A DNA stretch of 64,000 nucleotides, taken from assembly GCA_951406725.2 (NCBI GenBank), contig OX597814.1, positions 160,084,001-160,148,000 on the forward strand. The letters are read 5' to 3'. The notes under the pieces were generated by a model. That model saw only the letters and a list, made by a program, of their open reading frames with translations. It searched no databases and was not told where the DNA came from. The position numbers and the translations under genes were made by a program. This document shows, one piece after another, positions 4,989 to 64,000 of this stretch (its first letter is position 1; every line of letters starts with the position of its first letter). The stretch is from Octopus vulgaris. Taxonomy: Eukaryota.

Positions 4989-4990
<2 letters not shown>
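4155..4990 (-). mobile_element. Three consecutive antisense SINE A copies (~4155-4368, ~4447-4650, ~4780-4990) separated by trinucleotide repeats
   Basis: Each contains the reverse complement of the family A core (AAAGTCGAC..CGGCGGAATTTGAACTC.GAA). Confidence 0.85.
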
Positions 4991-5941
<951 letters not shown>

Positions 5942-5968
5942 AATAATAATAATAATAATAATAATAAA

Positions 5969-6497
5969 ATGCCTTGATGCAGTACCAGACAATGGCTCTC
6001 GTGTTATCATGTACATTGTTTTGTCTTGGTATAAAAGGTGGGCTACAGCAAATATTCTGCTCAATACCACAGATTTGCTTGTCAGTTGTTTGATCTTAAC
6101 CAGTTGAGCATTTCCCTTAGTGGCTGACGATATGTGCATCTCTGATCACGAGTAGAAGTAGTGGGAGAGCATCATAGCCAAGTGTTGTGAGGGATTCTTT
6201 GGGGTTTGAATAAATCACCTCTGGAAACATAGGTGTTTCGTTCAACATCTTTAAACAACCATTATTCAGGGACCTTTTGAGCGGGATGGGTAACTCGACC
6301 AGAAGAAAATTCTAACTGGGCGCCACCTGCAAGGTCATGTGCTGTTTATCTTGATATGAGAACACCATATCACGCACATATGGTTGTGTTGCATTTGCGT
6401 GGTGTACCCTTATCAGACGGGTAGTCATGATGAGTATACTGGGCGTCGTATATTTTACCCTAGTGTCACTTTGATGGTATGCACTGCTCTCTCACTC
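5969..6497 (+). mobile_element. Non-coding (TAA)n-embedded element, copy 1 (small internal deletion near the 5' end)
   Basis: Highly similar to 6569-7124 along its whole length; both ends abut (AAT)n. Confidence 0.85.
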
Positions 6498-6568
<71 letters not shown>

Positions 6569-6570
<2 letters not shown>

Positions 6571-7124
6571 GCCCTGATGCAGTACCAGGCAGTGACTCTC
6601 ATGGCCTCTGATCTTAACTGATTGGAAGTGTTATCATGTACATTGTTTTGTCTTGGTATAAAAGGTGGGCTACAGCAAATATTCTGCTCAATACCACAGA
6701 TTTGCTTGTCAGTTGTTTGACCGTAACCAGTTGAGCATGTCCCTTAGTGGCTGACGATATGTGCATCTCTGATCACGAGCAGAAGTAGTGGGGGAGCATC
6801 ATGGCCATGTGTTCGGGGGGATTCTTTGGGGTTTGAATAATTCACCTCTGGAAACATAGGTGGTTCTTTCAACATCCTTAAACAACCCTTATTCAGAGAC
6901 CTTTTGAGCGGGATGGGCTACTCAACCTGAAGAAAATTCTAACTGGGCCCCACCTGCAAGGTCATGTGCTGTTTATCTTGATATGAGATCACCATGTCGC
7001 GCACATATGGTTGTGATGCATGTGCCTGGTGTACCTTTATCAGACGGGTAGTCATGATGGGTATATTGGGCTTCGTATATTTTACCCCAGTGTCACTTTG
7101 ATGGCATGCACTGCTCTCTCACTC
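6569..7124 (+). mobile_element. Non-coding (TAA)n-embedded element, copy 2 (apparently full length, 556 bp)
   Basis: Starts ATGCCCTGATGCAGTACCAGG, ends GCACTGCTCTCTCACTC, with (AAT)n on both sides. Further copies at 12159-12301, 28386-28546 and 60811-61067. Confidence 0.88.
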
Positions 7125-7166
<42 letters not shown>

Positions 7167-7358
7167 CTTTTCTGCTATAAGCACAAGGCCTGAAATTTAA
7201 GGGTTGGGCACTAGTCGATTACATCAACCCCTGTGCTCAACTGGTACTTATTTTACCGACTCCGAAAAGTTGACATCGGCCGAATTTGAACTCAAAACGT
7301 ATAGACGGAAGAAATCATTTTGCCCGGCGTGCTAACAATTCTGCCAAGCTTGCCGCCT
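7167..7358 (-). mobile_element. SINE A, antisense, degenerate
   Basis: Reverse complement of the family A head and core. Confidence 0.8.
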
Positions 7359-12158: not shown

Positions 12159-12301
12159 GAGAGAGAGCAGTGCATGCTATCAAAGTGACACTGGGGTAAA
12201 AATATGCGAAGCCCAATATACCCATCATGACTACCCGTCCGATAAGGGCACACCACGCAAATGCAACACAACCATATGTGCGTGATATGGTGTTCTCATA
12301 T
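12159..12301 (-). mobile_element. 5'-truncated copy of the (TAA)n-embedded element
   Basis: Matches the last ~145 nt of 5969-6497, and its 3' end runs into a short (AAT)n. Confidence 0.85.
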
Positions 12302-59719: not shown

Positions 59720-59950
59720 GGCGGCGAGCTGGCAGAAACGTTGGCACGCCGGGCGAAATGCGTAGCCATATTTCGTCTGCCGTTACGTTCTGAGTTCAAA
59801 TTCCGCCGAGGTCGACCTTGCCTTTCATCCTTTCGGGGTCGATAAATTAAGTACCAGTCACACACTGGGGTCGATGTAATCGACTTAATTCGTTTGTCTG
59901 TCCTTGTTTGTCCTCTCTGTGTTTAGCCCATTGTGGGTAGTAAAGAAATA
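59720..59950 (+). mobile_element. SINE A, young full monomer
   Basis: Near-identical to the copies at 1150, 32330 and 63691. Confidence 0.92.
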
Positions 59951-60495
59951 TATATAAGCGCAATTGCCAGGCTTCTACAAAAATGTGTGTATATATGCAA
60001 ATAAGCATACACATTGTTAATTGTGTATGTATGTGTGTGCGTGAATATATACATATTGTATGTATGTTCCAAGTTGTAGACCATGAAATTACGCCTATGT
60101 CGGAGAAATTTTACATACAGGCACATCTCATGAAGGAATTCATAGGCCAGGGGACTTTTTCTAGTACCTCCTAGTAAAACACCAAGTCATGCTGTCCACG
60201 GCTGCCAGTGTGTGTGTTTGTGTGTGTATATGGGTGTGCGCGTGCACGCATATATGTGCAGAACACACAAATACACAAACACACTCACAAATACACATAC
60301 GCACACACATATATAATGTATGTGTGTACATATATCATATATGTGCATGTATGTAATTAACCGTATAATATAATTGTTTCATAGACCTTGGACATTTTTT
60401 TTAAGTTCGCTTGCCACTGGCTTAAATTATTATTAATTAATAATATTAATTTCTACCCTCAATATTTAACTTTATATATATATATATATATTTAA

Positions 60496-60550
<55 letters not shown>

Positions 60551-60706
60551 TACAGTTCTATATTAAAGAGATGAGGAATTATGTACATGATTTACATTCG
60601 ACGGATATTTGTCCTCAACGTTTCGGCTGAGATGCCCTACAGCCTTCTTCAGGTGTCTTGGGGAAATTTCGAACCTGGGTTCTCATTGGTAAGGTATTTT
60701 TCGATG
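60551..60706 (-). mobile_element. Penelope-pLTR-like segment with a minimal hammerhead core (stem I 3' strand damaged)
   Basis: Minus strand reads ACAC CTGAAGA A GGCTG tagggcatct CAGCC GAAA CG TT gagg (60656-60613); the end abuts (TA)n. Confidence 0.65.
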
Positions 60707-60742
60707 TTGTTGTTATTATTATTATCATCATTATTATTATTA

Positions 60743-60810
<68 letters not shown>

Positions 60811-61066
60811 GAGTGAGAGAGCAGTTCATGCCATCAAAGTGACACTGGGGTAAAATATACGAAGCCCAATATACCCATCATGACTACCCGTCTGATAAGG
60901 GTACACTAGGCACATGCATCACAACCATATGTGCGCGACATGGTGATCTCATATCAAGATAAACAGCACATGACCTTGCAGGTGGGGCCCAGTTAGAATT
61001 TTCTTCAGGTTGAGTAGCCCATCCCGCTCAAAAGGTCCATGAATAAGCGTTGTTCAAGGATGTTGA

Positions 61067-61067
<1 letters not shown>
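60811..61067 (-). mobile_element. 5'-truncated copy of the (TAA)n-embedded element
   Basis: Matches the 3' ~257 nt of 6569-7124; (TTA)n on both sides. Confidence 0.9.
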
Positions 61068-61141
<74 letters not shown>

Positions 61142-61166
61142 TATTATTATTATTATTATTATTATT

Positions 61167-62520
61167 CTATGTTTGACTTTTGCTTTATATTTGTACAAGT
61201 TGGCTCCAAGTCTTACCCAGAGACCCCAAGAGACAACAGGGTTGGAAGTTCATGTTGTTGTTATGCCTAGTGTGTCATATATTTGGGCGGGGGGTGTTGT
61301 ACTAATGAATGTCTAAAAAAAGTTTTTTTTTTTTTTTTTTTTGTAAACCGAGAATTATGTTTGTTTTAAACCTTGAGATTACATAGAAAGTATTTTGCGT
61401 AGGATATGAGCAGTTCCCATGAGCACTATCTTTTGAATTTCTGCCATTTTTGGGTTTCCTGGTATCTGAGTTAGGTAGCTATCAGCCCCTTTTGCTATCA
61501 TTCCCAGGGCACCTATGACAACAGGTATTGTTTTAGTCTTCAGGTTCCACATTTTGCTGATTTCTGTTTGAAGATCTTTATATTTGCTCAGTTTTTGGTA
61601 GGTCTTGACAGATACGTTTATATCGATTGGGACAGTCATATCAATGAGGAGGCATGTTCTTTGTTTGAAGTCTTTCAATATGATGTCTGGCCTATTTGCA
61701 TCTATCTTTCTGTCAGTTTGAATGGTGAAGTTCCAGAGGAGTGAGATGTGGTCATTTTCAAGCACTGGGGGTGGTTTGTGTTCCCACCAGTTTTTTTCAT
61801 GGGGCAAATCCAGGTTTTTGCAGATTACCCAGTGAATATATTGTGCAGCTCTATCGTGCCTGTTGAGATACTCTGTAGGCGCTAGAAGACTGCACTTGGA
61901 GACCACATGGTCAATGGTTTCATTTTGTTGCTTGCATACACGACACGTTGGACTGCTTCTGATCTTTAATATGTTGGCCTGGTAGTTTCTTGTTGATAGG
62001 CATTGATCTTGAGCTGCTATGATAAACCACTCTGTTTCAGATTTTAAGCCAGAGGCCATTAGCCATTGATGGGTCAGGGCTTTGTCAACATCTGCATTAT
62101 TTGCTCTCTTTGGGTATTTGCCATAGAGAGGTTTTTCTTGCCATTTATCATTCAGAATATCTAAGGCCGCAGATTTAGCACTGGTTTTCATGCGCTTAGC
62201 TTTTTCTGTGCCTGTTTCTTGTATGTCTATCTCTAATTCCGAAATTTGTTGTATTCGGAATTCACTTAGATATTCCTTTGCCTGTTTTGTTACTGAGTAT
62301 GATGCTTTCTTGTTTTCATGTTTTGAGACAAGTTTTAACATCCAGTCCTCAGAGTTTTTCAGGTAGGTGTCTAGGCCAATTGTAGCAATCTTCATTGTTA
62401 TTGCCAGTTGTAAAAGTCCACGGCCTCCCTCTTTTCTTGGCAGATAAAGTCGTTCTGTATCTGCCTTAGGGTGGTGCATTCTATGCATTGTCAACAGTTT
62501 TCGTATTTTCGTATTTTTTC

Positions 62521-62523
<3 letters not shown>
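61167..62523 (-). mobile_element. 5'-truncated R4/Dong-type non-LTR retrotransposon inserted in (TAA)n
   Basis: Intact 371-codon frame plus a ~210-nt 3' UTR; perfect (TTA)n tracts at ~61070-61166 and 62524-62606 on either side. Confidence 0.93.
61379..62494 (-). CDS. C-terminal part of a retrotransposon ORF: post-RT region, CCHC knuckle and restriction-like endonuclease (RT core absent)
   Basis: RLYLPRKEGGRGL, CRVC..ETIDHVVSKC, RHD, RPDII..LIDMTVP, KLSKYKDL, IPVVIGALG. Confidence 0.88.
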   Translation of the reverse strand: MTMHRMHHPKADTERLYLPRKEGGRGLLQLAITMKIATIGLDTYLKNSEDWMLKLVSKHENKKASYSVTKQAKEYLSEFRIQQISELEIDIQETGTEKAKRMKTSAKSAALDILNDKWQEKPLYGKYPKRANNADVDKALTHQWLMASGLKSETEWFIIAAQDQCLSTRNYQANILKIRSSPTCRVCKQQNETIDHVVSKCSLLAPTEYLNRHDRAAQYIHWVICKNLDLPHEKNWWEHKPPPVLENDHISLLWNFTIQTDRKIDANRPDIILKDFKQRTCLLIDMTVPIDINVSVKTYQKLSKYKDLQTEISKMWNLKTKTIPVVIGALGMIAKGADSYLTQIPGNPKMAEIQKIVLMGTAHILRKILSM

Positions 62524-62606
<83 letters not shown>

Positions 62607-62610
<4 letters not shown>

Positions 62611-62681
62611 CCACTGCTTGGAATCGAACTCGGAATCTTGGGGTTAGTAGCCCGCGCTCTTAACCACTATGCCGTATGCCC
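62607..62681 (-). promoter_or_regulatory. tRNA-derived Pol III-type head (not a functional tRNA)
   Basis: GGGCATACGGCATAGTGGTTAAGAGCGCGGGCTACTAACCCCAAGATTCCGAGTTCGATTCCAAGCAGTGGCCTG: box A- and box B-like motifs, imperfect acceptor and T stems, running directly into (AAT)n. Confidence 0.75.
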
Positions 62682-62798
62682 TGGGCATATGGCAAGAGTG
62701 CGTATAACCACGGCTGGAAGACCTTTCTGCAATGTTTGTACGCCCATTGTCAACACAATGGGGTTAATGTATTTCACACCACCACCACCACCACCACC

Positions 62799-62849
<51 letters not shown>

Positions 62850-63690
62850 GCAACAACAGCACTAATCGTCAAGCCTATGAATTTTGCTCTTGTGTAAAAT
62901 ATATATGTTTCTTTTATAGTCTCGTGATTGCTAGCTTCTCCCACATTTTCCAGTTCGTCGTGATCGATATTTCGACGAGTCTTAAGTCAGTATAAGTTAT
63001 TCTTCACTTCCTTTAAAACTCACTGTGTTACAAGCTATGATACAGCTCGTTAAAGACAAACGGACACGCCCCGTTTAATTTCCGCTTTTATGCAAAACTT
63101 GAGATATTGCTCATGCACCAGATACAAGATGAAGGTCAGAGACATATTGCACAAGGAAAATATTTCTATAAAGTCAGTGATTCAGTAAAATATTTGACTT
63201 TTTATTCGCCACAAGAAGAAAAATGTAATGGCGACTGTTGTGCGTATGTCTGCGAAGAGACCCCTCAATCCATCCGTTCTTTTACATATACATATTTTCA
63301 TTGCATACACACATACATACTTCTGTGTGTGTGTGTATGTGTGTGTGTGTGTGTGTGTGTGCATATGTGTGTGCGTGTGTGTGCATGTGTGTGTGAGCGT
63401 GAGTACATTTATGCATGTATACGTACAGGTACAATGGATTAAATTCCTCATGAGAACAGTTATGTGCCAGTGATTAAGCCAGACAACAGAATACACTACT
63501 AGGGAACCATGTAACCTTATTAAAGTTATGTCTACATATTTTCTATAGAAATTAGAACCAGTGCCTGTTTGTTACCTGTAGCAAATCAGTACTGGCTCTA
63601 ATTTCAATCGAAAATCTGTAGAGACAACTTTAAAGTTAGTTAATAGACTGCTTACACAGGTGAGGCATAATATTGACTTATAAGACAAAA

Positions 63691-64000
63691 GGCGGCGAGC
63701 TGGCAGAAACGTTAGCACACCGGGCGAAATACGTAGCCGTATTTCGTCTGCCGTTACGTTCTGAGTTCAAATTACGCCGAGGTCGACCTTGGCTTTCATC
63801 CGTTCGGGGTCGATTAAATAAGTACCAGTTACGCACTAGGGTCGATATAATCGACTTAATCCGTTTGCTTGTCCTTGTTTGTCCTCTCAGTGTTTAACCC
63901 CTAGTGGGTAGTAAAGAAATAGGTATTTCGTCTGCCGTTACGTTCTGAGTTCAAATTCAGCCGAGGTCGACTTTGCCTTTCATCCTTTCGGGGTCGATAA
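63691..64000 (+). mobile_element. SINE A dimer, runs off the window end
   Basis: Head plus body, with the body restarting at GAAATAGGTATTTCGTC (~63916). Confidence 0.92.

Follow-up and report, generated by a model that had tools for sequence, protein, structure and literature searches.

The split repeat analysed here very probably represents the pseudo-LTR (pLTR) of an autonomous Penelope/Poseidon element, about 2.6 kb long, together with the beginning of its ORF. It lies in a 64,000-nt stretch of Octopus vulgaris DNA (contig OX597814.1), referred to as the window. We propose with moderate confidence that this pLTR carries a tRNA-derived head as a likely Pol III-type start, and that the element's own RT/GIY-YIG protein made the short copies of the repeat.

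Layout of the locus and its nested insertions

On the minus strand, the window reads in the order tRNA-like head, (AAT)n, LINE 3′ fragment, (AAT)n, truncated element, (AAT)n, hammerhead segment and (TA)n. The parts named in the original prediction were all confirmed at their positions. The full layout is as follows.

62683..62693, minus strand: inverted (fold-back) 11-nt copy of the first bases of the head, representing a very short second insertion arm
62607..62681, minus strand: tRNA-like head, 5′ part of the pLTR (A box 62674-62664, B box 62631-62620)
62522..62606, minus strand: (AAT)n linker of the pLTR, 5′ part
61167..62521, minus strand: 5′-truncated LINE 3′ end, a later insertion (CCHC finger and putative restriction-like endonuclease region)
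61069..61166, minus strand: (AAT)n between the two nested inserts
60811..61068, minus strand: 3′ 258 nt of a non-coding, (AAT)n-tailed element of ~550 nt, a later and young insertion
60713..60810, minus strand: (AAT)n linker of the pLTR, 3′ part
60553..60712, minus strand: 3′ part of the pLTR and the "tail", which is the start of the Penelope ORF (ATG 60686)
60652-60617, minus strand: minimal hammerhead core within the tail, predicted cut after 60617
About 60585 (short) and 60553 (long), minus strand: the two 3′ ends in the tail
60473..60549, strand not assigned: (TA)n flank, with no TSD visible at this copy

Cutting out the two inserts restores, as had been proposed, a single unit of head, (AAT)n and hammerhead segment of ~270 nt. 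The first base of the A box is changed from T to C in the window copy, and the palindromic junction seen at 62683..62693 recurs in many copies. Another very abundant SINE-like repeat is located on both sides of the locus (window 59720-59960 and 63690-64000, minus strand).

The linker contained more than 100 extra nucleotides in 9 of 77 head-bearing arms, seven of which were foreign inserts of several families and two microsatellite growth. Because the same kinds of insert occur in free (AAT)n arrays, for example at window 4990-7170, the linker is regarded as an ordinary (TAA)n target. The idea that the microsatellite serves as a landing pad therefore holds in that it collects (TAA)n-targeted inserts, but this is not special to the element, since free arrays are hit as well. 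The nested LINE fragment has a 380-aa open frame with a CCHC motif and (AAT)n on both sides; its zf-RVT match (E=1e-5) fell below the cut-off, and its endonuclease motif was recognized by eye, the regular expression giving no match. We take the fragment at 61167..62521 to be probably of the R4/Dong clade, from its (TAA)n context. In the part of the literature available, Bombyx Dong is described as lying in TAA repeats.

A second R4/Dong-like LINE 3′ end, 67% identical to the nested one and with an internal partial duplication, was observed in an (AAT)n cluster at window 4990-5870 (plus strand), and this second family was also found inside the linker at loci L008 and L044. The non-coding element of ~550-570 nt was observed at window 5873-7170 (plus strand), 12161-12301 (minus strand) and 60811-61068 (minus strand), and at loci L257, L059 and L019. 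Its copies are 5′-truncated, have an (AAT)n tail, are always located in (AAT)n arrays and reach 97-100% identity to each other; the insert at 60811..61068 is 97% identical to the copy at window 6868-7124. A 12-nt word within the first 30 nt of this element recurs at the 3′ end of the tRNA-like head, and the element is probably a non-autonomous partner of R4/Dong-type LINEs.

Identity of the unit and its insertion pattern

Protein searches with natural fragments gave a constant order of ORF end, head, (AAT)n and tail, and at loci L143 and L207 the order is head, tail and ORF N-terminus. The sequence upstream of the head, common to several copies, translates to the C-terminus of a GIY-YIG endonuclease, while other natural pieces translate to a Penelope-type N-terminal region. 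In ORF-linked copies the RT and GIY-YIG ORF stops about 30-33 nt upstream of the head, a junction that was constant in the loci seen, and the ATG of the ORF lies inside the tail, overlapping the minimal hammerhead. From the constant order and the ATG in the tail, it follows that the unit consists of the pLTR and the first ~50 codons of an autonomous element.

The frame of the tail matches the N-terminus of P0002, a PLE protein of another organism, at 45% over 113 aa (E=8e-31). The homologues are mostly RT proteins of 815-850 aa, including a 49-member Anolis carolinensis cluster at 40%, which we infer to be Poseidon PAc. RVT_1 was above the Pfam cut-off in natural fragments, and the GIY-YIG region, which has no Pfam match of its own, aligns to the Anolis protein. 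The element thus has a single RT and GIY-YIG ORF, a pLTR on both sides of the ORF that contains the ORF start, a minimal type I hammerhead motif in the pLTR, and an inverted 5′ arm, a tail at one end and a short TSD. By these features the element would be a member of Penelope/Poseidon, its clade placement being made by similarity. The suggestions that the tail is pLTR-like and that Penelope machinery moves the unit are upheld. The unit is not the separate non-autonomous passenger that had been envisaged, as it belongs to the autonomous element itself.

The 2.6-kb yardstick used below is a column-majority sequence in which one frame slip was kept from its scaffold. None of 2 x 150 scored matches contained an intact natural ORF, and open frames in them reach 465 aa at most, which argues that the burst is old. 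Other PLE families obtained by a Pfam GIY-YIG search of the genome were rejected as partners, as none shares the tail. Among them is a young PLE family with an intact 781-aa RT and GIY-YIG ORF and many copies of identical score, observed at L091-L093 and L102 (e.g. L091:2745-5087); a second ORF of about 330-380 aa precedes the first, the 3′ region consists of long tandem repeats, and the hammerhead is a U3-A8 variant. A scan of viral contigs gave no relative. Eukaryotic Penelope elements were also observed in contigs of prokaryotic assemblies (MAGs; L391-L402), where they probably represent host contamination.

The head alone and the tail alone were each searched against the octopus genome (2.8 Gb, 227 contigs), giving 29 other loci each. 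The co-occurrence of the two, which had been put forward as a check, was found: a tail followed within 200 nt on the same strand in 24 of the 29 loci picked by the head, was elsewhere in the locus in four and was lacking in one, and a head lay within 300 nt upstream in 17 of the 29 loci picked by the tail. The presence of both parts in these proportions argues that their association is not chance. A 24-nt pattern across the hammerhead had 7,159 exact matches in the genome (reversed control, 0), and an exact match to it is present in 17 of 71 arms that were found independently, from which the number of arms can be roughly estimated at ~30,000. Copies of the tail are about 93-95% identical to the column majority. 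Rearranged, near-identical copies of the element are present many times on one 12-Mb contig (C31; L153-L155, L160, L162, L176, L177, L196), which suggests a large segmental or tandem amplification.

The arrangement of arms was analyzed in the first pattern matches along contig C1, taken in order, which gave 86 loci after four overlapping neighbours were removed. Two arms were positioned head to head in 51 of these loci. The 3′ ends of arms fall at two fixed sites, separated by about 30 nt. The 51 divergent pairs comprised 43 with one long and one short 3′ end, three with two short ends, none with two long ends and five that were unclassified, so that 43 of 46 classifiable pairs were asymmetric (p=2e-10 vs 0.5). 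Direct repeats of at least 8 nt (8-14 nt) surrounded 21 of the 43 asymmetric pairs, compared to about 2.5% of shuffled pairings. An inverted arm, a tail on one end and a short TSD are a known PLE signature, according to the parts of the sources consulted (Arkhipova et al. 2013, PMC3846280; Craig 2021). For PAc, the available text of Frangieh et al. 2024 (PMC11167929) describes two internal RT start sites and two-strand cutting in vitro. The two fixed ends and the asymmetry found here would fit these start sites and two-strand cutting, and the asymmetry suggests a separate priming site for each strand.

As far as the portions consulted describe them, Poseidon PAc and Adineta Pen2a (PMC11167929, PMC3846280) share with the octopus element a single ORF with RT and C-terminal GIY-YIG, a pLTR over the ORF start, a hammerhead overlapping the first codons, an optional ~30-nt tail on one end, an inverted 5′ arm and a TSD of about 8-14 nt. 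Against the same portions, the octopus element differs in that its pLTR starts with a head bearing A and B boxes and (AAT)n rather than a T-rich or TATA-type region, and in that it offers tens of thousands of copies in which to count the asymmetry of long and short ends.

In the minimal hammerhead of an intact copy of the unit, stem I has 5 bp, an unpaired base precedes stem II, stem III is missing and the centre is palindromic. Stem I, the integrity of which had been in question, is thus intact there but is broken in the window copy by a 20-nt deletion; exact matches genome-wide were 5 for the deleted form and 5,054 for the intact form. Rfam called no hammerhead in the window or in good copies. 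In 12 relative loci that were parsed, the same minimal core is located behind the ORF; its stems differ in sequence but pair nonetheless, and stem I is 3-4 bp long in 11 of these loci and 1 bp in L314. In the parts consulted of Cervera and de la Pena 2014 (PMC4209133), metazoan PLE minimal hammerheads likewise combine a short helix I (5 bp) with a palindromic centre and an unpaired base on the 5′ side of helix II, lack helix III and occur mostly as solo copies genome-wide; those parts include no tRNA-headed case, unlike the predicted hammerhead unit of the octopus. Such hammerheads cleave poorly, as dimers or with protein help, according to the same parts and those of Frangieh et al. 2024 (PMC11167929). 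The reading of deletions as marks of ribozyme cleavage in vivo was dropped, the 20-nt deletion of the window being rare and present on two variant backgrounds. Small deletions group loosely at +179..+186. A partial tandem of three short units with junctions inside the hammerhead core was observed at L004:1102-1591 (minus strand), the only such array seen.

The tRNA-like head and transcription

The head contains A and B boxes at tRNA spacing. In a comparison with 30 host tRNA loci covering only six isotypes, tRNA-Arg(TCT) was the closest, being identical to the head at 51 of about 75 positions (z about 7 vs shuffles). ARAGORN and Rfam called no tRNA or cloverleaf for the head, either in the window or in good copies. 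A run of four or more T was present just downstream in 23 of the 30 host tRNA loci. Several tRNA-Lys/Thr loci (L289, L299-L303, L306, L309) are followed by a T run and then a common downstream repeat, which suggests either tRNA-headed retroposed copies or a repeat inserting behind tRNA genes.

Relatives of the element were collected from metagenome and genome collections. They amounted to 92 loci, of which 49, many belonging to the same families, continued beyond the ORF end; a pair of A and B boxes behind the ORF was found in none of the 49. The stretch from stop to hammerhead in relatives (16 examined, 15 with a hammerhead) is 100-470 nt long and contains TTTT in 13 of the 15; that of the octopus element is 182 nt long and contains no TTTT. 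The T-rich, often TATA-bearing pLTR region of relatives is absent from the octopus element. The 5′ ends of arms coincide with the head: of 68 arms reaching +25, 59 stop between +25 and -30 and nine run on into the ORF, with an end density of 0.16 per 10 nt at the head vs 0.004-0.013 further upstream and 0.01-0.06 downstream. L143, the one 5′-complete ORF-bearing copy that reaches the head, ends there as well. Since none of the 49 relatives is headed, 59 of 68 arms stop at the head and TTTT is lacking, the head likely marks a working Pol III-type transcription start, as judged from sequence. A Pol III RNA would be uncapped, and its translation would need explaining, which counts against a Pol III start.

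Three raw RNA-seq runs, unstranded and labelled as a related species, followed genomic copy depth, with 76-82% running into unlike flanks. Peaks of loose ends were present at both 3′ ends and no pile of starts at the head, in libraries of a kind that loses short RNAs, so that these runs speak neither for nor against Pol III.

The head may instead be an inert SINE remnant in the 3′ UTR of the same pLTR, the RNA being made by Pol II or read-through and the pile-up of 5′ ends by fold-back; this is possible, although we hold it unlikely. A hairpin of 4-5 bp is present at -7..+5, at the pile-up itself, and fold-back junctions are seen. Palindromes at pLTR 5′ ends (rotifer PLEs, Arkhipova et al. 2013, PMC3846280) and abundant solo motifs (Cervera and de la Pena 2014, PMC4209133) are described for ordinary PLEs in the portions consulted, and the pile-up could therefore be hairpin fold-back. 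The A and B boxes show no extra conservation (5.1% mismatch vs 4.7-4.8% in the rest of the head), although equal decay is also predicted by neutral decay after insertion, and the absence of TTTT is only marginal. However, a 4-5-bp hairpin would be unlikely to halt about 87% of cDNAs, the T-rich and often TATA-bearing pLTR of relatives is missing, just 33 nt separate the stop from the head, and the 5′-complete ORF-bearing copy L143 also ends at the head.

A stronger form of the Pol III start, which we regard as doubtful, is that the whole 2.6-kb coding Penelope is transcribed by Pol III from the captured tRNA promoter and that all TTTT has been purged from its sense strand. The sense strand of the yardstick contains no TTTT, where codon shuffling predicts 2.8 (P=0.03) and base composition 4.7 (P=0.009). 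Such runs number 0, 0, 1 and 1 in four natural near-full copies and 8 each in three other PLE ORFs of the same genome. Runs of four or more G are likewise absent from the yardstick, and the ORF of one headless relative family (L339/L363), which accounts for 2 of the 40 loci at least 1.5 kb long, is free of TTTT too. If full-length Pol III transcription were true, each solo repeat would be a self-promoting SINE, giving a direct route from Penelope to a hammerhead SINE.

Origin of the short copies and likeness to known elements

In the original prediction the unit was an independent non-autonomous SINE, with a tRNA head and a Penelope tail, that has its own masters and is mobilised in trans. This appears improbable. 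In its favour, short copies are much more numerous than ORF-linked ones (the head is passed by 9 of 68 arms), they carry both a promoter-like head and RT start sites, so that a solo unit could be remobilised, and a partial tandem of short units exists (L004). On the other hand, the head is located within the autonomous element itself, and non-CpG variants occur at similar frequencies in 54 ORF-linked and 134 short heads, among which no short-only subfamily or variant was found. Divergence in ORF-linked and short copies is 4.9% vs 4.6% for the head (p=0.67) and 4.3% vs 4.0% for the tail (p=0.27). With variants and divergence in common, the short copies most simply derive from the same masters as the ORF-linked ones. 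In terms of the SINEBase definition, the head is of SINE type, bearing A and B boxes and descending from a Pol III RNA, and neither a separate non-autonomous lineage nor a 3′ simple-repeat tail with a LINE partner was found; the simple repeat is internal in the unit and the fixed 3′ ends fall inside the PLE ORF.

A non-LTR retrozyme, meaning a tandem hammerhead repeat spreading via self-cleaved circular RNA, would agree with the 170-400 nt size range, the type I hammerhead and the proposal, in the part of the source consulted, that retrozymes are PLE derivatives (bioRxiv 10.64898/2026.07.22.740005), but it is very improbable here, as copies are dispersed, head to head and end at fixed RT start sites instead of the cleavage site, direct tandems are rare, the head-to-tail units by which retrozymes are recognized are not the arrangement found, and 5′ ends do not pile up at the predicted cut.

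The pLTR with a Pol III-type start may have arisen and spread as follows. A tRNA-derived SINE that had (AAT)n as its tail probably supplied the head, which the element captured. Transcription would start at the head, and short copies would be made from RNA beginning there by the element's own RT/GIY-YIG protein. The protein may bind the RNA of the ORF start and cut both target strands, priming one cDNA from the short site and the second from the long site, which lies about 30 nt further downstream (cf. PAc in vitro), and the two cDNAs would then be joined at their 3′ ends. Initiation in the pLTR copy nearest the RNA 5′ end would give the ~270-nt solo unit, and initiation in the downstream pLTR would give ORF-bearing copies. 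The hammerhead is the minimal motif usual in PLEs, for which cutting is predicted only in dimers or with the aid of protein. R4/Dong-type elements would have inserted later into the (AAT)n of the pLTR, as in the window.

No description of a tRNA-headed PLE was found in the literature searched, with Repbase, Dfam, subscription papers and supplements outside that search, and the tRNA-headed pLTR is an unusual feature that sets the element apart from its Penelope relatives. Ohshima and Okada reportedly described, in 1994, three octopus tRNA-derived SINEs, namely OK, OR1 and OR2. The short form may be one of these or be present in Repbase or Dfam; like it, they are tRNA-derived octopus repeats, and a link of theirs to Penelope was not found in the literature searched. 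The closest likeness of the head in LTR elements is offered by the Helenus/Ajax/Cassandra "TRIMp3" group, which in the portions of Kojima 2024 (PMC10886601) consulted has a small-RNA-derived Pol III promoter in the terminal repeat, as is the candidate case here, with a proposed origin by SINE insertion into the repeat. On the same portions, Helenus and TRIMp3 are non-autonomous LTR elements with PBS and PPT, in contrast to the autonomous octopus Penelope with its pLTR. The SINE-like SMalpha repeats of schistosomes and animal non-LTR retrozymes (PMC8490949; PMC7229834; bioRxiv 10.64898/2026.07.22.740005) are, in the parts available, short type I hammerhead repeats linked to PLEs, as here, but they are tandem or non-coding and have canonical hammerheads and circular RNAs, whereas the octopus unit is the working end of a coding element.

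Roughly 30,000 tRNA-SINE-like arms in this genome are, in this analysis, Penelope ends. That a long 3′ end is almost always matched with a short one gives the in vitro start sites of Poseidon the form of a testable rule, covering the two ends of an insertion, so far an open point in the PLE cycle. A Pol III start at the head would explain why short copies with the ribozyme number in the tens of thousands. Should the head indeed act as a Pol III promoter, the element would be the Penelope counterpart of tRNA-bearing LTRs such as those of Helenus, here in an autonomous element, and it would show a concrete way in which SINE-like repeats with a hammerhead, SMalpha for example, could have originated.
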